The position numbers were made by a program, and so were the translations under genes. From assembly GCF_000012805.1 (NCBI RefSeq), contig NC_007484.1:1500001-1532000 (forward strand): a stretch of DNA of 32,000 nucleotides, in the 5' to 3' direction. Source of the stretch: Nitrosococcus oceani ATCC 19707. GTDB lineage: Bacteria > Pseudomonadota > Gammaproteobacteria > Nitrosococcales > Nitrosococcaceae. Under the pieces are notes generated by a model, which worked only from the letters and a program-made list of their open reading frames with translations, was not told where the DNA came from and made no database searches. Shown one piece after another: positions 10,280 through 22,196 of this stretch (position 1 is its first letter; every line of letters starts with the position of its first letter).

Positions 10280-10383
10280 GGCTTGGTTCAATGGGTTGTC
10301 TATATGGTAGTGTTAGGCTACAACGATAGTATCTTAGCGGCAATTTTAACAAATAGTGTACAGTGATCTCTGATAACGTGCCC

Positions 10384-12306
10384 ATGGAATACGCTTTATT
10401 TTCTGCGGCTGAGCTTCTAGGCGAAGACGGTCCTTTAGCCCGCCAAATTGAAGGATTTACCCCGCGCCGCCCGCAACAGGAGATGGCGGAAGTGGTTGCT
10501 AAGGCTTTAGAAGGAAAACAAACTTTAGTGACTGAAGCGGGTACAGGCACGGGCAAAACCTACGCTTATTTGGTACCAGCATTATTGTCAGGGATCAAAG
10601 TTATCATTTCCACGGGGACTAAGCATCTCCAGGATCAGCTTTACCATCGGGATTTACCCTTGGTGAAAAATGCCTTGGGTATTTCCTCCCGGGTGGCCCT
10701 GCTTAAAGGGCGGAGTAATTATCTTTGCCTCCATCGTTTACATTTGTTTACCCAGGAAGGGGAAGCGAGTCATGGCCGTTTGGCTGGGGATCTGGTAAAG
10801 GCGCAACTGTGGGCGCGCCAGACTTCCACTGGCGATATTAGCGAATTGGGTGGAGTCGCTGATGATTCCCCCGTGTGGCCCCGAATTACTTCCACAGCGG
10901 ATAACTGTTTTGGGCAAGGATGTCCCTCCTTCTCGAAATGTCATTTGATGGCGGCCCGGCGCCAGGCCCAGGAAGCCGATATCCTGGTGATTAATCATCA
11001 CTTGTTATTATCGGATATGGCGCTACAGGAGGAAGGTCATGGCGATCTGCTGCCGCCAGCCAAGGCGTATATTTTGGATGAGGCTCATCAGCTTCCTGAA
11101 ACCGCCTCCCGCTTTTTTGGGCGCCGTGTAAGTGGTCGCCAATTGCTAGAGTTGGCCCGTGACAGTGGAGCGGAGCAACGCAATGACGCCCCTGATATGT
11201 TAGCTATCCGTGATGCTTGCCAGTGGCTGGAGAAGACGGTAGCCGATTTCCGCTTGGCCTTGGGTCTCGGAGAGCGCCGCTTGGCTTGGCGGAAGGTTGC
11301 GGATATGCCGCCAGTAGCCCTAGCGCTAGAGCAACTAAGTAGGGCCTTGGCGGATTTGGAAGTAGAACTTGAGCCGGCGGCGGTGCGGGGCAAGGGTTTG
11401 GAACATTGTTTTAAGCGCTGCGGGAGTTTGCGGGAGCAGCTTGCGATGTTTGCTGAAGAGGCAAGCGAAGATTTTGTTTATTGGTTCGAAGCCTACAGTC
11501 GATCCTTTATTTTAAGCGCGAGTCCCTTGGAAATCAGTGAAAACTTTCAGGCTTACATGGAATGTCGGCCGGGTGCTTGGATATTCACTTCGGCCACCAT
11601 GGCGGTAGGGGAGCACTTTGATCATTTCAATCATCAGCTAGGTTTAGAAATGCCTGCCAGCTATCGTTGGGAAAGTCCCTTTGATTTCCAGCGGCAAGCC
11701 CTTTTGTATCAGCCTGTTGGGCTTCCTGAACCTCATGATTCCGGTTATACCCAGGCAGTGATCGAAGAATCCCTGCCGGTGCTTGAAGCTAGCCGCGGCC
11801 GCGCCTTTTTGCTGTTTACCAGTCATCGGGCGCTGAAGGAAGCCTATAGCTTGCTCAAGGATCGAATAGCTTTTCCTTTATTAGTCCAAGGTAGCGCACC
11901 GCGCAGTGAGTTGTTGCGCCGCTTCCGCGCTTTGGGTAATGGTGTATTGTTAGGTACGAGTAGCTTTTGGGAGGGCGTGGATGTCCGCGGCGAGGCTTTG
12001 TCCTGTGTCATTATTGATAAACTGCCTTTTGCTTCCCCAGGTGAACCGCTGCTGCAAGCCAGAATTGAGGCCATCCGTCGTCAGGGCGGTAACCCTTTTA
12101 TGGACTATCAACTTCCCAATGCTGTCATTCAGCTTAAGCAAGGCGTGGGACGGCTGATTCGCGATGTGCATGATCGAGGCGTATTGATGCTCTGTGATCC
12201 CCGCCTTCGCAGTAAATCCTATGGTCGTTTGTTCCTGAAGAGCCTGCCAAGCATAGCCCAAAGCCAGGATATTAAAGAGGTGGAAGCCTTTTTCCAGACT
12301 GGATGA
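10384..12306 (+). CDS. yoaA: DinG-family ATP-dependent DNA helicase (YoaA-like, Fe-S XPD-type)
   Basis: Walker A TEAGTGTGKT, DEAH box (ILDEAHQL), four-Cys Fe-S cluster region (NYLCL...NCFGQGCPSFSKC), C-terminal helicase motifs (SFWEGVD, QGVGRLIR). ATG at 10384; the track starts at GTG 10363. Confidence 0.88.
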   Translation: MEYALFSAAELLGEDGPLARQIEGFTPRRPQQEMAEVVAKALEGKQTLVTEAGTGTGKTYAYLVPALLSGIKVIISTGTKHLQDQLYHRDLPLVKNALGISSRVALLKGRSNYLCLHRLHLFTQEGEASHGRLAGDLVKAQLWARQTSTGDISELGGVADDSPVWPRITSTADNCFGQGCPSFSKCHLMAARRQAQEADILVINHHLLLSDMALQEEGHGDLLPPAKAYILDEAHQLPETASRFFGRRVSGRQLLELARDSGAEQRNDAPDMLAIRDACQWLEKTVADFRLALGLGERRLAWRKVADMPPVALALEQLSRALADLEVELEPAAVRGKGLEHCFKRCGSLREQLAMFAEEASEDFVYWFEAYSRSFILSASPLEISENFQAYMECRPGAWIFTSATMAVGEHFDHFNHQLGLEMPASYRWESPFDFQRQALLYQPVGLPEPHDSGYTQAVIEESLPVLEASRGRAFLLFTSHRALKEAYSLLKDRIAFPLLVQGSAPRSELLRRFRALGNGVLLGTSSFWEGVDVRGEALSCVIIDKLPFASPGEPLLQARIEAIRRQGGNPFMDYQLPNAVIQLKQGVGRLIRDVHDRGVLMLCDPRLRSKSYGRLFLKSLPSIAQSQDIKEVEAFFQTG

Positions 12307-13253
12307 GCGTCGGCTTTTAATCGTTCCCCTGGGGAGTCTTGGGAACGGTGTGACCAGTAGTAAGCCAGCAGGGACCCGGAGAGATTGTGCCAGATACTAA
12401 ATAAAGCTCCGGGAAGGGCGGCCTGGGCGGTAAAGTATTTTAAGGCCAGGGCCACCGCTAGACCTGAGTTCTGCATGCCTACCTCAATGGCTACGGTGCG
12501 GGATTGGCGTTGACTAAAACCTAGGGTCTGGGCTAATCCATAACCGCTTGCCAGGCCCAATCCATTATGTAACAGGATGCAGAGGGCGATTGTTGGAGCA
12601 ATGAGGGTCAGTTTATCCTGGTTAATGGCCACGATAATCGCCACGATGAGCACAATGGCAAAGACCGAAATGACAGGAAAAACATCGGTGAGCTTGCCTA
12701 GCCGTTGGCCGAAAAAAGTATTGATGATAACTCCCAAGGTGACAGGAAGCAGCACGATTATCAAAATACTTTGCAGCATATCAGCTACTGGCACTGGGAC
12801 TTGCTGCCCCACATAAAGCCAGGTGAGAAAAGGAGTGGCAAGAACCGATAGAAGCGTGGAAGCAGCCGTTAGGGTGATGGAGAGGGCCACATCACCCCGG
12901 GCTAGATAACACACCACATTGGAGGCGGTGCCTCCTGGGCTGCATCCCAGCAGAATCATGCCGACGGTAAGATATGCCGGTAAGCTAAAAAGGTGGCTTA
13001 CTATCCAGGCGATGAAAGGCATCAATAAAAACTGTAACAGGGCGCCCGTCGCAACAGCTTGGGGCTGTTTGAGAATTAGGACGAAATCATTGGCTTTAAG
13101 AGTTATTCCCATGCCAAACATGATCACACCTAACAGGGGTACGATAGCCGGTTTGAGAACTACCCAGGGTTCAGGATATTGGTAGGCCACTCCAGCCCCC
13201 ATGAGCGCCAGCAGTGGAAATAGAGCTGTGATTCGATTAGCTGTTGTTGCCAT
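12219..13253 (-). CDS. Bile acid:sodium symporter (BASS/SBF) family transporter
   Basis: 344-aa polytopic membrane ORF. GMGITL, GCSPGGTASNV and QNSGLA motifs are typical of SBF-family carriers. A non-hydrophobic C-terminal tail of about 40 aa overlaps the helicase 3' end. Confidence 0.85.
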   Translation of the reverse strand: MATTANRITALFPLLALMGAGVAYQYPEPWVVLKPAIVPLLGVIMFGMGITLKANDFVLILKQPQAVATGALLQFLLMPFIAWIVSHLFSLPAYLTVGMILLGCSPGGTASNVVCYLARGDVALSITLTAASTLLSVLATPFLTWLYVGQQVPVPVADMLQSILIIVLLPVTLGVIINTFFGQRLGKLTDVFPVISVFAIVLIVAIIVAINQDKLTLIAPTIALCILLHNGLGLASGYGLAQTLGFSQRQSRTVAIEVGMQNSGLAVALALKYFTAQAALPGALFSIWHNLSGSLLAYYWSHRSQDSPGERLKADAHPVWKKASTSLISWLWAMLGRLFRNKRP

Positions 13254-13627
13254 GGGATATTGACCTAGCTGAAGATATAACGGGTTTGGATAAGCAAGAA
13301 CGAAGCGATATTTCGGGTATAGTGGGTAGGCGACGCTGCGCCCTTCCTTAGTATACAGAAAGGCGCTTTCAATAAGGTGGTGTCACTGAGCAAGCACTGG
13401 TCTATATGCTGGTTTTGTCTTTTCCAATTTTTTTGCGGCGAAATCATACTGATGTCATATCTTGCGCTTTTGCTGGTGCAATAATAGCCTTTGTTATCAT
13501 AGCTACGATCTAGCAGCAAGCGATTTGCGCTGAAGGAATACAGGGATGTATGACGCCCCCCCAGCGGGCGTGCGAAGTGAAACGGCGCGCCGAGCGCGAG
13601 GGCCGCATAAAGTGATGTTGGCGGCGG

Positions 13628-13652
13628 GCCTGTCTGCGTGCGACGCACAGGC
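13628..13652 (+). repeat. Left-end subterminal bulged hairpin (gcctg-tc-tgcgt-gcg-acgca-caggc)
   Basis: A 5+5 bp stem with a 2-nt bulge and 3-nt loop, read directly from the sequence. An inverted copy lies at 14856-14880. Confidence 0.6.
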
Positions 13653-13679
13653 GGGCAAAATTCGCGGTATACTGGGCGC

Positions 13680-13711
13680 GGTTGAGCGGTGCCTGGAAAC
13701 ACCCCTCAACC
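13680..13711 (+). promoter_or_regulatory. Second hairpin immediately upstream of the tnpB start (ggttgag-c-ggtg-cctggaaa-cacc-c-ctcaacc)
   Basis: A 7+4 bp stem with a symmetric 1-nt internal loop, 37 nt upstream of the ATG at 13748. Function unknown; candidates are IS-end structure or translational control. Confidence 0.4.
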
Positions 13712-13747
13712 ACTTGCCACCGACCCAATAGGAAAAGTATTGAGGCC

Positions 13748-14959
13748 ATGACCGAGCCGGATTCTAGCAAAATACAGCGAAGCTACAAGTTTCGCTTCTA
13801 CCCCACCAGCATCCAGCGCCAGCAACTTGCCCTTGAGTTTGGCCATGCCCGCTGGGTGTGGAATACCTGTCTGACCTGGCGGGGCCGTCAATACCGGGTG
13901 CACGATAAGCGCGTGACTGGCGTTGATTTTAGCCGCCAGCTCACGTTTCTAAAAAAGCTAGGGGCTTACGCGTGGCTGGGCGAAGCGACCCGCGATGGCC
14001 TCATGCAAAAGCTCCGCGACCAGGACAGGGCCTTCAGGAACTTCTTTGCGGGTCGGGCCAAATATCCCAAGTTCAAAAAAAGAGCCCATACCCAAAGTAT
14101 CCGCTACTGCTTCGATCATCGCCGCAGGGGCAAGATGAAAGCGTGGATAGAGGGTAAGCTCGTTCTGCCCAAGCTCGGGGCGCTCAAGCTCAAGGGGTCC
14201 CGCAGGCCCCAGGGCGTCCCCAAGATGGTGACGGTCACCCAGGACGGTGCGGGTCGTTATTTTATCTCCTTCATGTGCGAAGAGACGATCCAGCCGCTGC
14301 CGCGAAAGCCAAACGGTATCGGCGTGGATCTCGGCGTGAAGGATATTGTCGTGACTTCCGAGGGCTGGAAGTCAGGCAACCCACGGCACCTCAGGAAAAT
14401 TCAGCGTGGATTATCCCGCAAGCGCAAGGGTAGTCATCGCTGGCACCGTCAGCGGATACGGGTCGCCAAGGCCCACGCCAGGGTGAGCAATACCCGTCAG
14501 GATTGGCTGCATAAGCTCAGCACGGTACTGATTCGCCAGGCTGGTTTCATCGCCATGGAAGATTTGAACGTCAGGGGCATGATGGCCAATAGACGGCTAG
14601 CCAAGGCATTGGGCGATGTGGGCATGCACGAACTTAAACGCCAATTGGCATACAAGGCTAAGTGGTATGGCCGGGCGTTGGTGCAAGTGGATAGGTGGGC
14701 GCCCACCAGTAAAACGTGCTCGGCATGTGGCACGGTGATCGATGTCATGGCGCTCAAGGTTCGCGAGTGGAGGCGTATACCCACTGGAGGTGGTCGCATG
14801 ACCGCCAAAGGACGCCCGCGAAACGCGAATGGCAGCAAGGCGAGTGAGGCTGCCTGCCTGTGCGATGCACGCAGACAGGTCGGGAACAAGCGAACGAGAC
14901 TTAGCCGCAAACTCCAATATTCTTACCATCAGCTTGCTGCTAGAGGAGACGTTACGTAA
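13748..14959 (+). CDS. tnpB: TnpB-like RNA-guided-endonuclease family protein (IS605 OrfB), C-terminal Zn-finger/RuvC-III region degenerate
   Basis: OrfB N-terminus YKFRFYPT, RuvC-I GVDLGV, RuvC-II IAMEDLNV and the first half of the Zn finger TCSACG are all present. After REW (14762-14770) the in-frame sequence loses all consensus. A relic of CxxCGxxHDRDxNAAxNI reads YTHWRWSHDRQRTPAKRE in a different frame (14776-14829). Confidence 0.75.
   Translation: MTEPDSSKIQRSYKFRFYPTSIQRQQLALEFGHARWVWNTCLTWRGRQYRVHDKRVTGVDFSRQLTFLKKLGAYAWLGEATRDGLMQKLRDQDRAFRNFFAGRAKYPKFKKRAHTQSIRYCFDHRRRGKMKAWIEGKLVLPKLGALKLKGSRRPQGVPKMVTVTQDGAGRYFISFMCEETIQPLPRKPNGIGVDLGVKDIVVTSEGWKSGNPRHLRKIQRGLSRKRKGSHRWHRQRIRVAKAHARVSNTRQDWLHKLSTVLIRQAGFIAMEDLNVRGMMANRRLAKALGDVGMHELKRQLAYKAKWYGRALVQVDRWAPTSKTCSACGTVIDVMALKVREWRRIPTGGGRMTAKGRPRNANGSKASEAACLCDARRQVGNKRTRLSRKLQYSYHQLAARGDVT
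14856..14880 (+). repeat. Right-side bulged hairpin, inverted copy of 13628-13652
   Basis: gcctg-tgcga-tgc-acgca-ga-caggt. The bulge sits on the opposite arm from the left copy, so the two are inverted relative to each other. Confidence 0.55.
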
Positions 14960-15194
14960 CCACCACTCTAGCCGGCATATTTTGTGCACTTTGCATCCAT
15001 CCTCTGAGATTCCACGGTGGCAATGGGCGGTGTCCATGGCTTACTTTTTTCATCAAATAAAATCAAAATGCGCCTATTCATAGCGCAACTTAGCTTGTGA
15101 TGGCACCACCTAATCTAATGGCATAGCATCAAGGCAGGTTAGTGCCACAAACTCACCCTTGTACGATTTGGGATTAGTCTAAACGCAAAACATA

Positions 15195-17435
15195 ATGAAA
15201 GTAGTAAGCCAGAAAACCCGGATATCTCGTAAGCTCGCTGTCAATCCTTCAATGCTTGAAGAAGATAGGCCGGACACAATAGATATATCGGTGATACCAG
15301 GCCCTCGTGGTCTAGAGGACGATAAATTTCCATTTGAAATGCTCAGTGATATTGCCGAGCGTGAGAGTTGGCGGAAGGAAATCAATCGGCCCTTATCTCA
15401 TATTCATAAATGGTGGGCGCAGCGATTAGGAACAGTATTTCGAGCAATGACTATCGGTGCACTTGTACCGAAAGGCTCTAATATCATTGACCTTTTTTAT
15501 AAGCCAGTACGCATAAAGGACGCTATTGTTTTTGATCCCTTTATGGGCAGCGGTACGACCATCGGCGAAGCGCTCAAGCTTGGAGCGCGGGGCATCGGTC
15601 GGGACATTAATCCCGTGGCCTACTTTCTCGTTAAGAATGCTCTTTCCATTCATGATCGCCCGGCAATCCTTGCCACTTTCCGGGATATAGAACGTGATGT
15701 GGTAAGTAAAGTGCGCCCACTCTACCAGGCAACCCTCCCTGATGGGACAGTGGTTGATGTTCTTTATTACTTTTGGGTCAAAATAGTTGACTGTCCAGCC
15801 TGCGCTGAATCTGTTGATCTCTTTTCATCATACATTTTTGCACGGCATGCCTATCCCAAGAAATTCCCGAGAGCGCAGGCTGTGTGTCCCACTTGCGGGG
15901 CAATCAACGCTGTCCGCAACGATGCACAAAAAGCATATTGTCATACGTGCAATAGGGCGTTTAATCCGCAGATTGGGCCTGCTAGTAGGCAGAAAGCCAC
16001 GTGTCCCGCCTGTGCTCACGCCTTCTTAATTGCCAAGACGATTCGGGCGACTGATCGGCCGCCAGCTCACCGACTTTATGCCAAGCTTGTTCTCATGCCT
16101 GATGGAGCAAAGGCCTACCTGCCAGCTACGGATGAAGATCGGGCACTTTATGCACAGACAAAAGAGACTCTAAATAAGTTTAAGAATGCCTATCCGATTG
16201 TCCCGATTGAGCCCGGTTACAACACGAACCAAGCGCTTGGGTACAATTACCGCTACTGGCATGAAATGTTTAATGTACGGCAGTTGCTGGGCTTGTCTAT
16301 TCTCGCCGACCGCATTCGTCAGATACCCGATACCATTCTCTGCAACCTATTTACATGCTTACTATCAGGCGCACTTGAGTTTAATAATATGTTTGCGTCC
16401 TATAAAGGTGAGGGTACGGGCGCAGTCCGGCATATGTTTGCCCATCATATTCTAAAGCCGGAGCGTACTCCCTTGGAGGCAAACCTCTGGGGCACGCCTA
16501 AAAGTTCGGGTTCTTTCTCAACCCTATTCGAGGGGCGGATCAAGCGGTCGCTTGATTATGCCGAAAACCCGTTCGAGCTTCGCCTTTCCAATAGGAGCGG
16601 GAAGAGGATTAGCGAGAAGGTGTTCGGACTCTCCGAAAAGATCGGTTTTTCGATTGCCGATAGCTTTTCTTCCTTTGCCGCAGGGAAGCGTGTTTATCTT
16701 TCCTGTGCCGATTCAAGCGCGACCGACCTGCCCGAGCACTCTGTTGATGCTGTCCTTACTGATCCCCCTTTCTTCGACAATGTTCATTACTCCCAGCTTG
16801 CTGATTTCTTCCACGTCTGGCAGCGCCACATTCTTGGTTCTAATGGGTATCGGCAAGACTATACCACTCGCTCAAGGAATGAAGTTCAGAGCGCTGAAGT
16901 GAATGCCTTTACTGATCGTCTCACCGCAGTATGGATTGAAGTACATCGTATCCTTAAGGATGACGGCATATTGGCGTTCACCTACCACCATTCCCGCCCG
17001 GAGGGTTGGCGTTCCGTCCTACACGCTCTTATGGCTGCTGGGTTTGGGATCACGGCTGCTCATCCCATGAAGGCTGAAATGTCAGTCGCCATGCCGAAGC
17101 ATCAAGCCAAGGAGCCGATCAATCTGGATATTATCATCGTCTGCCGTAAGCGGTCACAGCTTCAGAGGCACTGCTGGAACGGCGATTTATGGGAAACAGC
17201 CATGCCTATCGCTGCTGAGCAGATTCGCCGGTTGCGGGAGGGAGGACGGCGGCTTAGTCGAAATGATGTTCGCGTCATCGTCATGGCGCAGATCTTAAGG
17301 CGGCTATCTGTCTCTCACACGGTAGAAACAGCTTTAACTCTGCTTGACGCCTGTAGTGCCGAGACTGAAGCACTTATTGAGCAACTCTATACTGCCGATA
17401 AGGAGAGAACAATCAGCAACAAGATGAAGGAGTAA
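15195..17435 (+). CDS. Zn-ribbon-containing DNA methyltransferase (COG1743/DUF1156-like, N6A/N4C type)
   Basis: 746-aa ORF. DUF1156-like N-terminus (FPFEMLSDIAERESWRKEINRP..HKWWAQR). AdoMet motif DPFMGSGTT (15534-15560). Four CxxC pairs: CPAC, CPTC, CHTC, CPAC (15792-16013). Catalytic DPPF (16761-16772) followed by FDNVHYSQLADFFHVW. Confidence 0.8.
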   Translation: MKVVSQKTRISRKLAVNPSMLEEDRPDTIDISVIPGPRGLEDDKFPFEMLSDIAERESWRKEINRPLSHIHKWWAQRLGTVFRAMTIGALVPKGSNIIDLFYKPVRIKDAIVFDPFMGSGTTIGEALKLGARGIGRDINPVAYFLVKNALSIHDRPAILATFRDIERDVVSKVRPLYQATLPDGTVVDVLYYFWVKIVDCPACAESVDLFSSYIFARHAYPKKFPRAQAVCPTCGAINAVRNDAQKAYCHTCNRAFNPQIGPASRQKATCPACAHAFLIAKTIRATDRPPAHRLYAKLVLMPDGAKAYLPATDEDRALYAQTKETLNKFKNAYPIVPIEPGYNTNQALGYNYRYWHEMFNVRQLLGLSILADRIRQIPDTILCNLFTCLLSGALEFNNMFASYKGEGTGAVRHMFAHHILKPERTPLEANLWGTPKSSGSFSTLFEGRIKRSLDYAENPFELRLSNRSGKRISEKVFGLSEKIGFSIADSFSSFAAGKRVYLSCADSSATDLPEHSVDAVLTDPPFFDNVHYSQLADFFHVWQRHILGSNGYRQDYTTRSRNEVQSAEVNAFTDRLTAVWIEVHRILKDDGILAFTYHHSRPEGWRSVLHALMAAGFGITAAHPMKAEMSVAMPKHQAKEPINLDIIIVCRKRSQLQRHCWNGDLWETAMPIAAEQIRRLREGGRRLSRNDVRVIVMAQILRRLSVSHTVETALTLLDACSAETEALIEQLYTADKERTISNKMKE

Positions 17436-17438
17436 CTT

Positions 17439-18214
17439 GTGTCGAAAGCTTCCACAATTTTCAAGAAATGTGTTCGGGCCATTCAAAACGGAGAGCTTAT
17501 CGAACGCGAAGGCCGCAACGATAAGGAGTTTTACTTTCAGAATTGGTTTCAGAAGAGATTAGAGGCACTCAAGCTAAATTTTGATTCTCCTGGTCGTAAC
17601 ACCTATCCGGATTTCCGCCTTGTACAGCATACGGAAGGATACGAGCTAAAAGGTCTTGCCTATCCAGGACGTGAAGCTGACTATGATTGCAATAGTCAGG
17701 TTCCATGTGGTGAACACAATGGACGCCAGGTGTATTATGTTTTCGGGCGATACCCTGTTAACCCGGATGGCAACAGTTATCCCGTGCTCGATTTCGTTGT
17801 ATGCCACGGCGATTTCTTGAATGCGGACAACTGTTATGTCCATAAAAAAAAAGTTTTCGAGGCTTTGGAAGCTACGGCGATATCCTTGTGCGTGATAGAA
17901 AGATGTACGTTGCGCCAACCCCATTCGCACTGGCGAAAGGAACTTCGCATCGACGTACATTGATCTTGCCTATAGACCATCCTGTAGATGATGACCTTAT
18001 TGAGGTAGGTACGCTAACTCGTCGTGAGGTTAGCCAAGTTGTTGTCGCTTACAGCTTCGATCTTCGCAGCAATGAGCTTGAAACAACGCTTGTTGCCAAT
18101 CCCAATGCAGGCCGAGAGCATATCTTTAAGGCTTACCGGATTGAGGGTGATCCTCTCGATCCTGTCTCTCTTCGGGAACAGGAAAAAGTTATTGCAGCTC
18201 AGAAGGTAAAGTAA
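17439..18214 (+). pseudogene. PD-(D/E)xK restriction-endonuclease-like gene interrupted by a frameshift in an A9 tract
   Basis: GTG start 3 nt after the methylase stop, with AAGGAG 6 nt upstream. Motif YPDF(D58)...EGYELK(E69,K71). The frame changes at the A9 run 17844-17852. One extra A would join HKKK to SFRGFGSYGDILVRDRKMYVAPTPF... and give a single ORF of about 258 aa ending at 18214. Confidence 0.6.
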
Positions 18215-18947: not shown

Positions 18948-19524
18948 CTTTTCGGGGTCCCTTTTCCAGGCGGGGAGGATTCGGTCCTGAAGTCTCCACC
19001 TCGATAAGTTCCATGGGTTTACGCTGAGCCAGGTTTTTTTTAGCTGCTTTCCCCTTTAGGGTTTCTTGGCGGGCCCGCACTGCATAGCCGGTTAGGGCGC
19101 CGCCAGCGGCCAGCAGGGTCAAGATACCAACGGTAAAAAATTGTAGAGTAAGTAACCCTACCCCGACAGCCGCTGCTCCAACGACGGCTGCGCCCACCTT
19201 GAAATTAGCTTTGGCGTGGGCGCGGTTGGTTTCTTTTACAATACGCTTATGGGTTTGTTCGAATACGCGGCTTTTTTCTTTTTCCGTAGAGACGAGAAGC
19301 TGTTCCCGTTCTTGAAGCAGCTTTTCCTTCATTCGCGCCAAGGCATCTTTTTTGATGTGATTAGCGATGGAAGCGAACCAGAAAGCCGTCATAAAGCTGG
19401 CAATTAATGCAAGCAGCCCATAGGGTAGCCAGTTAGTTCCTGGATTCTCCAGGAAGGCGAAAACAAGGATGGCGGTGGCCACTTGAATAATGATAATTCC
19501 CGGGAGAAACCTGAGCATTGACAT
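18910..19524 (-). CDS. Membrane protein with two N-terminal and two C-terminal TM segments flanking a charged helical linker
   Basis: 204-aa ORF. Hydrophobic N-terminal segments, a KEK-rich central helix, a Gly/Ala-rich TM pair and a basic tail. Overlaps the PIG-L start by 38 nt. I recognised no family. Confidence 0.55.
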   Translation of the reverse strand: MSMLRFLPGIIIIQVATAILVFAFLENPGTNWLPYGLLALIASFMTAFWFASIANHIKKDALARMKEKLLQEREQLLVSTEKEKSRVFEQTHKRIVKETNRAHAKANFKVGAAVVGAAAVGVGLLTLQFFTVGILTLLAAGGALTGYAVRARQETLKGKAAKKNLAQRKPMELIEVETSGPNPPRLEKGPRKDESNSDHQRPSG

Positions 19525-19813
19525 ATAGGGTAAACCTATCGGGATAAAAATCGGCAGAAGTAGACGAAGCGGTTATCTGGCGAATAATCGATCCGTGTCT
19601 TAATAAATCTCATTATAGAGTATCCGGGAAGCTATTTCCGAGATCGGCCTATGCAAGCATAGGCTGCGCTGAGAAATTGCCCAACTTCCATGGCAGTAGG
19701 CGCGTTGTTAGGGATCATCGCTGCTGGATGGGGGAGAACGGATCTATTCCTTCCACCGAGTAGGGGAAAACCTAGCCTAGGCAGGCGGCTTAGTCTAGGT
19801 CTTCCGATACTCC

Positions 19814-20570: not shown

Positions 20571-22196
20571 CTAGCGGCATCCTAGAGTTAGAGTCCAGTA
20601 GTGCCTATAGGTGCTTCTTCCTTGATAGGCATAACCCACGCCCAATTCGCAGTAACTGGCGTTTAAGATATTACGCCGATGTCCAGGGCTATTCATCCAG
20701 CCAGTAAGCACTGCCTGGGGCGAGGAATACCCTGCGGCAACATTTTCTCCTGCCGTGCGAAACCGATAACCCGCATCGGCCATCCGGGTAAATGGACTTG
20801 AACCGTTTGAGCCCCTATGGCTGATAAAATTGTTTTGAGCCATATCTTTGGAATGTCCCTTTGCGGCAGCGACAAGAGCACTATGGATCTTCAGGGAAGC
20901 AAGATTATGCTTTTGTCGTTCTTGATTAATCAGCTTTATAAGCTCCTGCTCGGCGGGAAGAAGATTCTGGCTATCGGTAGTGTCGTTATTATTAGCAGCC
21001 TCCGTTACTTCAATGGTGATTTGGGTGGAATCTTTGCTGTTTTCATTATCGATGACCGTTAGGGTAACTACATGGGCCCCTGGCGTGTCGTAGGTGTATT
21101 CGAGATTTGGACCGGTAATGATTTGGCCGTTATCAAATTCCCAACGGTAGTGTTGAATAAATCCATCCGCATCCTGACTATTGCTGCCATCAAGCGTGAC
21201 GGTGAGCGGTAGGGGGCCTTTCTGGGGATTGGCATTAATCACTGCTTGCGGAGGTTGGTTAAAGGAAGGCCCGGCGGCTTTTATTTTAAAAGCGGTAATT
21301 TTGGCAACGTTTTGGCCGATGTTGACATCACTCGCAATAAAAACAGGGGCTTCATCTTCAAATGCAGTGGGAGCTTTCAGGATGTCTAAGCTGTAAGTTC
21401 CGTTTTTTAGGGAGCGAACAAGTGCGATTTCATCCTCTGAATCATTATCGAAATCACCCACGGCAAGACCATCCGGTATAATATCCCTACCGAGGTCGCT
21501 ATAGCTAAGTAACGGTGGTCCGAGGCTATCGGAAAGAGAAGAGGGAGGTGAGTAAATTTCTACTCTAACCGTGCCGTTTCCATTTTTTTGGGCGATGACC
21601 AACTCGCTTTTGCTGTCACCCGCCATATCACCAGCGCTGAGGCCAATGATGTTATTGCCAATATTCGCGGCGCCCGCAATTGCCAAAGCATTCCCCCGGC
21701 GGCGGGTGGGAAGATCGTAAATGATGAGTTGATGGCTCCCGTTTTGAAGGCGCTTAATGACAGCTAGCTCTTTTTCAGGATCGGAATCGCAATCGCAGAG
21801 GGTGGCAAATTGGACATTTCTCTCCAGAGACCTATCATCCGCCAGCAAGCGGAAAAACAAGGCGCCATCTTCCGGCTTGACCGTATAGAGATAAAGGCCG
21901 TTACTTCCAAATCTTCCATGAGTGAGGAAAATAAATTCATCGCCTGCTGCTCCACTGACATTTCCCGCTGCAAGGCTTGCAACATTTCCAAAAATCTGGA
22001 CATCTTGAAAAAGCTTAGCCTCTAACCTGTTTTCGGGGGCAAGCGGCGGGGTATATACTTGAAGCGTTAGTCCCCGTCTATTAACGTTATCTTTTATGAT
22101 GGCTAATTTCTCTTCTATGGCAAAAGCAACCGTTGATAAGGAGCATAATGCTGATATAAAGAAAGCGAAGCAAAGCATTCTTCGATTGAGATACAT
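20571..22196 (-). CDS. Secreted multidomain protein: FG-GAP/VCBS-like repeats, PKD domain, C-terminal CAP/SCP/PR1-like domain
   Basis: Signal peptide MYLNRRMLCFAFFISALCSLSTVAFA. Repeated GDxxGDxxxE-type segments (AGDMAGDSKSELVIA, VGDFDNDSEDEIALV). PKD-like LTVTLDGSNSQDADGFIQHYRWEFDNG. CAP-like end (GHSKDMAQNNFISH...GENVAAGY...WMNSPGHRRNIL). Confidence 0.8.
   Translation of the reverse strand: MYLNRRMLCFAFFISALCSLSTVAFAIEEKLAIIKDNVNRRGLTLQVYTPPLAPENRLEAKLFQDVQIFGNVASLAAGNVSGAAGDEFIFLTHGRFGSNGLYLYTVKPEDGALFFRLLADDRSLERNVQFATLCDCDSDPEKELAVIKRLQNGSHQLIIYDLPTRRRGNALAIAGAANIGNNIIGLSAGDMAGDSKSELVIAQKNGNGTVRVEIYSPPSSLSDSLGPPLLSYSDLGRDIIPDGLAVGDFDNDSEDEIALVRSLKNGTYSLDILKAPTAFEDEAPVFIASDVNIGQNVAKITAFKIKAAGPSFNQPPQAVINANPQKGPLPLTVTLDGSNSQDADGFIQHYRWEFDNGQIITGPNLEYTYDTPGAHVVTLTVIDNENSKDSTQITIEVTEAANNNDTTDSQNLLPAEQELIKLINQERQKHNLASLKIHSALVAAAKGHSKDMAQNNFISHRGSNGSSPFTRMADAGYRFRTAGENVAAGYSSPQAVLTGWMNSPGHRRNILNASYCELGVGYAYQGRSTYRHYWTLTLGCR

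Follow-up and report, generated by a model that had tools for sequence, protein, structure and literature searches.

In Nitrosococcus oceani ATCC 19707, a DNA methyltransferase (methylase) gene and, directly downstream of it on the same strand, a gene for a putative nuclease lie within a 32,000-nucleotide stretch of contig NC_007484.1 (positions 1,500,001 to 1,532,000, read on the forward strand). This stretch is hereafter called the window, and coordinates refer to it unless another locus is named. A preliminary description, made from the letters of the window, had proposed that the two genes form a compact restriction–modification (R-M)-like module. The present analysis finds that the methylase gene is intact and that the nuclease gene is broken.

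The methylase gene (15195..17435, plus strand) is an intact open reading frame (ORF) of 746 amino acids (aa). Its product carries a DUF1156-like N-terminal helical region (Pfam PF06634; aa 45-97, 15327..15485) with HKWWAQR at aa 71-77, the S-adenosylmethionine-binding motif I DPFMGSGTT (aa 114-122, 15534..15560), four CxxC pairs between aa 200 and 273 (starting at aa 200, 231, 249, and 270; 15792..16013), and the catalytic motif IV DPPF (aa 523-526, 16761..16772), all at the residues given in the preliminary description. The assignment to the methyltransferases made there was borne out by two Pfam matches above cut-off, one to N6_N4_Mtase (PF01555; 1.3e-13, 51.8 bits against a cut-off of 26.7) and one, barely over threshold, of aa 45-97 to DUF1156 (25.5 bits against 24; 1.4e-5); Zn_ribbon_19 matched weakly. 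Among PADLOC profiles, HmaB, PglXI, DUF1156_MTase, and MTase_II gave partial matches, that of PglXI covering aa 499-652 at 1.3e-23, and the NCBIfam model NF042963 (DUF1156_antiphage) aligned with partial stretches only, at 96.1 bits against a cut-off of 1000. The protein is 97% identical to one named “DNA methyltransferase” in N. oceani AFC132, and among 20 homologs of 66-97% identity the eight cysteines, DPFMGSGTT, DPPF, and the extended motif IV TDPPFFDNVHYSQLADFF are all invariant. Judged by these matches, this DNA methylase is a relative of the DUF1156 family, of which it represents a distinct short form.

The motifs do not follow the β-class order, in which motif IV precedes the target-recognition domain and motif I. 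Instead, motif I (aa 114) is followed by an insert of ∼400 aa and then by motif IV (aa 523), the permuted order that had been read from the sequence earlier and with which both the Pfam segment and the motif positions agree. Specifically, aa 98-141 are matched by the C-terminal, motif-I part of the N6_N4_Mtase profile (positions 175-214 of 221), and a profile of the 20 homologs matches solved β-class methylases, such as M.MboIIA (1g60), solely via the motif I near their C terminus; its counterpart in the alignment is the N-terminal stretch aa 93-145 of the window protein. Because PMC12839542 describes BREX type 3 and DUF1156 methylases as generally built this way, with a target-recognition insert after core strand 2, this order is a family trait and no peculiarity of the window gene. 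The insert is likely the target-recognition region, and its CxxC pairs probably form two zinc-ribbon sites; the DPPF motif suggests that the enzyme is probably an N6-adenine methylase.

The methylase stop codon (TAA, 17433-17435) is separated by 3 nt from the GTG start of the nuclease gene at 17439, and a ribosome-binding site, AAGGAG, lies within the methylase 3′ end (17427..17432, plus strand), in agreement with the junction as first described. Homologs of the nuclease begin VSKAS or MSKAS at the same place. The 5′ part of the nuclease gene (17439..17852, plus strand; aa 1-138) encodes a DKEF helix, P57-D58 (17607-17612) within YPDF (aa 56-59), and E69-L-K71 (17643-17651) within YELKG (aa 68-72), and it runs through a tract of nine A residues (A9; 17844..17852, plus strand) that marks a frameshift. 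The 3′ part (17853..18214, plus strand), in the -1 frame, encodes aa 139-258 of the repaired protein, including a GFGSYGD...RDRKMYV block and a C-terminal β-sheet domain. The gene is thus split into ORFs of 174 aa (17439..17963) and 108 aa (17888..18214, frame -1). A stop directly precedes the A9 run in the downstream frame, so that the two frames can be joined solely inside 17844-17852, the point across which homologs read ...YVHKNKSFRGFGSYGD....

Comparison among N. oceani strains identifies the lesion. Strain AFC132 (JPFN01000054, L085) has CATAAAAACAAAAGT at the frameshift site and an intact 258-aa ORF at the same chromosomal site; loss of the C from its AAAAACAAAA (His-Lys-Asn-Lys-Ser) yields A9, which leaves the first 138 residues of the protein followed by an out-of-frame tail that ends at a stop at 17961-17963. 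Besides the window and AFC132, the locus was read in NS58 (BJWX01000004, L086), which is identical to the window over an aligned 5.4 kb, in C-27 (JPGN01000043, L087), which has one mismatch in 4.1 kb, and in two read-based Logan assemblies (L088, L089), identical over 3.5 kb. Because these four assemblies, identical or nearly identical to the window, all carry CATAAAAAAAAAGT, the frameshift is a genuine one-C deletion, present in every C-27/NS58-type assembly read. The preliminary description, which had presented the pair as a compact module, placed the start of the ∼258-aa nuclease correctly and hinted at the split only by the word “repaired”. The copy in the window is not a working module: relative to AFC132 its nuclease gene lacks 1 nt, and a 258-aa product can be obtained from it only after frame repair.

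The strain names used here follow PMC7285500, in which AFC132 is treated as the ancestral lineage and C-107, NS58, C-27, and AFC27 are grouped as strains that closely resemble one another in sequence and synteny and share one R-M inventory. Outside the frameshift the window nuclease differs from the AFC132 protein by ∼3 aa over 258 residues, which suggests that the deletion may be recent. Lineage-specific substitutions amount to one nonsynonymous change per lineage, too few to judge relaxed constraint; the window protein carries H32Y, at a nearly invariant residue.

The nuclease family and its linkage to the methylase

When the nuclease fragments of the window and 27 diverse family members were searched by sequence and profile against Pfam, NCBIfam, PADLOC, and the PDB, no match was found, as expected from the earlier remark that the protein belongs to no named family. 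A phage genome collection likewise yielded no match to the nuclease, and literature searches on DUF1156 and restriction, on COG1743, and on Nitrosococcus methylomes and restriction returned no description of the pair. The family itself is large but compact: it comprises 4177 clusters at 90% identity in a set of 5.8 billion proteins, is ∼265 aa long, is mostly unnamed or annotated “hypothetical protein,” and is covered by 576 representatives at 50% identity (E ≤ 1e-3).

An AlphaFold model based on a diverse alignment reached a predicted local distance difference test (pLDDT) score of 92.5 and a predicted template modeling (pTM) score of 0.89, and replaced an earlier run with 22 close homologs that was discarded (pLDDT 58.5). 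In a Foldseek search of the PDB with this model, EcoRV ranked first (probability 0.99, E 3.8e-3), followed by many HincII entries and then by BglI, MvaI, and Hjc, while a viral fold library gave only weak matches to unnamed or generic PD-(D/E)xK proteins, including Vsr-like proteins. The model also contains an extra C-terminal five-stranded β domain. In an hhalign comparison with EcoRV, whose sequence was checked against 1eo3, the family motif RNsYPDF.L falls in register on QNHYPDFTL, which places D58 on the catalytic D74; this match is weak taken alone (pairwise E 0.016, HHalign probability 2.9%). Among members down to 31% identity, D58 is invariant, E69 and K71 are at least 90% conserved, and the DKEF...Q.W helix and the GSYGD...R.RKMY block are likewise conserved. 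The PD...ExK signature that had been noticed in YPDF and YELKG is therefore upheld by residue conservation and by a fold nearest to EcoRV and HincII. The family has a PD-(D/E)xK core with the D...(D/E)xK triad and matches no family model in the libraries searched; as modeled, the protein is a member of the restriction-endonuclease fold and forms a new sequence family in its EcoRV-like branch.

The linkage between the two genes was assessed in two sets of loci: 82 from genomes, selected by the nuclease, and 80 from metagenomes, selected by the methylase at 42-71% identity. A methylase adjoins the nuclease in 80 of the 82 nuclease-chosen loci, mostly with the methylase first and on the same strand; there is a single divergent case (L052), and a more distant clade (L079-L082) has the nuclease in first place. 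In the methylase-chosen set 63 of 80 loci have the nuclease next to the methylase, where it lies upstream, downstream, or convergent; among the loci flanked by 1 kb or more on either side, just four, one of them L106, are without it. Two protein clusters (P0125, P0237) are read-through fusions of methylase and nuclease, and no third gene recurs at the pair in more than 12 of 80 loci. These counts agree with the view of a self-contained R-M-like pair put forward in the preliminary description. Its suggestion that such a pairing is unusual fails, because this is the standard context of the methylase subfamily, with 4177 nuclease clusters and 424 stretches that match the nuclease in a one-genome-per-species collection. 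Its statement that DUF1156/COG1743 methylases usually sit in multi-gene loci with ATPase or helicase partners applies to the long form (Hma and DUF499-centered BREX-related systems); for the short, ∼750-aa form, the gene neighborhoods indicate that the two-gene arrangement is the rule and not an oddity.

The pair occurs in Proteobacteria, Acidobacteria, Verrucomicrobia, Clostridiales, Spirochaetota, Tectomicrobia, and others, with nucleases 62-83% identical to that of the window, and it is carried by mobilizable or conjugative plasmids, namely a small MobQ plasmid of Tabrizicola and Acidiphilium pACMV2.

Several side observations concern individual loci. In L106 (389-2847), the methylase clade stands beside an Mrr_cat endonuclease (470 aa) and a second β-class methylase, and the EcoRV-like nuclease is absent, an arrangement that indicates partner swapping by this clade. 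An ORF of 60-86 aa (KRFTVSLD..DYEAL...RPPL..QY.VRLAIRRFL) lies directly upstream of the methylase in L003, L004 (7533-7739), L006, L009, and ∼6 other loci; it looks ribbon-helix-helix-like by eye, has no Pfam match, and could encode a controller of the R-M pair. A conserved controller gene was rejected, as this ORF accompanies the pair in only ∼10 of 80 loci and the window has none. At ∼6 loci, including L003, L024, L039, L052, and the Tabrizicola plasmid (L083, 4592-6936), genes for a DUF262 protein and a HEPN-like nuclease (MAE_28990/MAE_18760 family) adjoin the pair and may constitute a second defense module traveling with it. The record names of L026, L033, L037, L043, L044, L060, L061, L064, and L066 suggest sponge-associated metagenome-assembled genomes (Entotheonella, Poriferihabitaceae, Porisulfidus, and sponge-style bin codes); a 2015 paper (PMC4453008) includes COG1743 methylases in its list of COGs unique to cyanobacterial symbionts of sponges. 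Finally, the methylase is duplicated in L031, a single metagenome-assembled genome (1760-3901 and 7817-9958), and in another such genome, L047, it is split by a ∼1.6-kb insertion beside a nuclease that still looks full-length; both loci bear on whether the nuclease is toxic without the methylase.

Interpretation of the locus

Collectively, the close linkage, the variable orientations, the fusions, the plasmid carriage, and the occurrence in many phyla constitute the signature of a mobile Type II R-M system. The elements by which such a system is recognized were found at the pair: a methylase with its motifs, a nuclease fold with catalytic residues (at the level of the family), and tight linkage of the two. 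Because the nuclease of the window is frameshifted and its methylase is intact, the window locus reads as a decayed R-M system. We therefore consider it likely that the pair represents a widespread, horizontally mobile Type II-like R-M family whose copy in the window has decayed, leaving an orphan methylase as its surviving product.

From homology and context, we infer sequence-specific methylation, cleavage, and protection for the intact pair. In an intact copy, the ∼750-aa methylase would methylate host DNA at a particular site, probably on adenine N6, and the ∼260-aa nuclease, presumably a homodimer of the EcoRV/HincII type that uses the triad D58/E69/K71 for metal binding and catalysis, would cut the same site when it is unmethylated. 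In the window, the loss of one base would truncate the nuclease and leave the methylase without its partner.

Several points weigh against this interpretation. A literature search on Nitrosococcus found no methylome. The likeness of the nuclease to EcoRV is remote, with a TM score of 0.32 and no Foldseek match at E ≤ 1e-3. The asymmetry expected of decay, in which the methylase outlives the nuclease, is not clearly seen; both kinds of broken locus occur. In L047, L062, L154, L167, and L169 it is the methylase that is split, next to a nuclease of apparently full length, and in the window, L134, and L157 it is the nuclease, next to an intact methylase. The asymmetry could be obscured by polar effects and assembly errors. 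In addition, the A9 run is slippage-prone, and some full-length nuclease could still be made.

This last point leads to an alternative that we regard as unlikely, in which the nuclease is attenuated and not dead. Runs of at least nine A residues are known slippage sites in bacteria, and RNA-polymerase slippage on A9, or -1 ribosomal slippage on A AAA AAA, would restore the frame in some of the products (HKKKSFRG...) and supply a low-dose restriction enzyme beside a fully expressed methylase. The frames overlap solely in A9, where a -1 shift or one extra A yields exactly the conserved downstream sequence, and apart from the deletion the downstream frame is undamaged, although the absence of further decay may merely reflect a recent event. 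The restored product would, however, have Lys in place of N137, a residue invariant in close homologs and at least 90% conserved in distant ones. Moreover, no homolog has the A9 run, which is interrupted in both homologous genes read in DNA at this site (L085 and L001), and the strains that share it are so similar (PMC7285500) that its fixation is no sign of selection.

Equally doubtful, in our estimate, is that the pair belongs with the multi-gene DUF1156 systems (Hma, BREX-related, and BREX type 3) as a reduced relative, with a nuclease that relies on the methylase for its target in a complex like those of Type IIG and Type III enzymes. The homology of the methylase to the HmaB, PglXI, and DUF1156_MTase profiles, the existence of natural fusions, and the translational closeness of the genes, which lie 3 nt apart or overlap, would all fit such a complex. 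Fusions arise trivially, however, when a stop and a start are in frame 3 nt apart, and the common convergent and divergent orientations fit separately acting proteins. In addition, the pair has no linked DUF499 ATPase or helicase, the methylase is without the C-terminal ∼200 aa of the 960-aa family, and the extra β-sheet domain and conserved loops of the nuclease could themselves read DNA. A bolder version, to which we attach no greater credence, holds that the pair is the minimal two-component core of the lineage behind Hma, BREX-related, and BREX type 3 systems, acting as one complex in which the zinc-ribbon insert supplies the nuclease with its target; if so, the family would represent an intermediate that links classical Type II R-M with BREX-like systems. 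The separate proposal that the A9 allele is a slippage-tuned, low-dose gene appears just as improbable.

A role of the nuclease in repair or recombination instead of restriction, in which it would accompany the methylase in the manner of Vsr and Dcm, is very improbable. The weak fold matches of the nuclease do include the Holliday-junction resolvase Hjc and viral Vsr-like proteins, but Type II restriction enzymes head the list and outnumber any other kind, and plasmid carriage together with a patchy spread across phyla fits a selfish or defensive R-M system. Moreover, DPPF points to amino-methylation, which creates no deamination mismatch and would leave nothing to mend. Least credible is a homopolymer sequencing error that conceals an intact pair in the window; a nine-base homopolymer is a classic error site, but this explanation was rejected because A9 recurs in independent assemblies, two from NCBI (NS58, C-27) and two from Logan, and the intact allele is AAAAACAAAA, not A10.

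Genomic surroundings of the pair

A TnpB-only element of the IS200/IS605 type, 1386 bp long (13532-14917, plus strand) and recognized by Pfam and NCBIfam TnpB matches, ends 277 bp upstream of the methylase start and is not part of the module. It is precisely absent from AFC132, where the transporter and PIG-L genes that flank the pair in the window flank it as well. The preliminary description had taken an adjacent insertion sequence (IS) as a sign of a defense islet; the element is real, but because AFC132 has the pair without it, comparison of the two loci indicates that the IS is a later arrival, neither the vehicle of the pair nor informative on its arrival. Its insertion is precise relative to AFC132 and shows no target-site duplication. 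The tnpB ORF (13682-14959) extends past the right end of the element into flanking DNA, the part encoding the zinc finger and the RuvC-III C-terminal region looks out of frame, and an HDRQ-like stretch lies in another frame, so this TnpB has probably decayed.

By Pfam domains and by synteny common to AFC132, the neighbors in the window are housekeeping-type genes. No DUF499 ATPase or helicase gene (HmaC, HmaA) lies beside the pair in the window, and no such conserved gene was found in the 80 loci; brxA, brxB, brxC, pglZ, and brxHII are absent from the gene content of the window, L085, and L086. A DinG-like helicase gene (10363-12306) was considered as a partner and rejected: it has the same position in AFC132 and NS58, is separated from the pair by a transporter gene on the opposite strand, and is unlinked to the pair elsewhere. 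A promoter scan gave predictions no better than shuffled expectation.

Between 9000 and 22000, divergence from AFC132 is mosaic, being 0-0.5% over most genes and ∼5% in patches at 12800-16400, 17000-17600, 19400-19800, and 21200-22000, which suggests recombination patches between the two N. oceani lineages. The methylase differs from its AFC132 counterpart by ∼3% at the protein level, and the nuclease is nearly identical.

Relation to known systems and significance

The pair most resembles Type II (IIP-like) R-M systems with an EcoRV/HincII-type nuclease. It shares with them one methylase and one nuclease of ∼260 aa whose fold is nearest to EcoRV, HincII, and BglI, as well as mobility, carriage on plasmids, and variable orientation; with EcoRV in particular it shares N-x-Y-P-D-F-x-L around the catalytic D74. 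Its nuclease stands apart by the absence of a sequence-level family match to restriction enzymes that have been solved or modeled, by a TM score of only ∼0.3, and by an extra C-terminal β domain. The methylase has motif I and motif IV sequences in common with β-class N6/N4 amino-methylases (PF01555, M.MboIIA 1g60) but presents them in circularly permuted order with a zinc-ribbon insert in between.

Its DUF1156-like N terminus, I–insert–IV order, and homologous core and insert recall the methylases of Hma and DUF499-centered BREX-related systems (HmaB, NF042963; PMC12839542). Long DUF1156 methylases, however, measure ∼950-970 aa and have a C-terminal part that the 746-aa protein of the window lacks, and their partner is a DUF499 ATPase or helicase, in contrast to the stand-alone nuclease of the present pair. 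PglXI/BrxXI of BREX type 3 belongs to the same broad methylase lineage (PMC12839542), yet its match is partial and there are no brx or pglZ genes nearby. The window locus also resembles orphan methylases left by R-M decay, with an intact methylase beside a frameshifted nuclease and a sister strain that retains the intact pair.

These comparisons have consequences for how such loci are annotated. Because PADLOC models score the methylase and not the nuclease, defense finders based on hidden Markov models that lack a nuclease model are expected to call orphan methylases at these loci, and with a model of the nuclease family many of these loci would be recognized as complete R-M systems. The nuclease family may also offer new restriction specificity. 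More broadly, the DUF1156-related methylase lineage is not confined to multi-gene Hma and BREX-like systems. In N. oceani itself, the locus would provide a dated example of R-M decay, with an intact pair in AFC132 and both the frameshift and the upstream IS in the C-27 and NS58 assemblies, strains that PMC7285500 groups with C-107 and AFC27.

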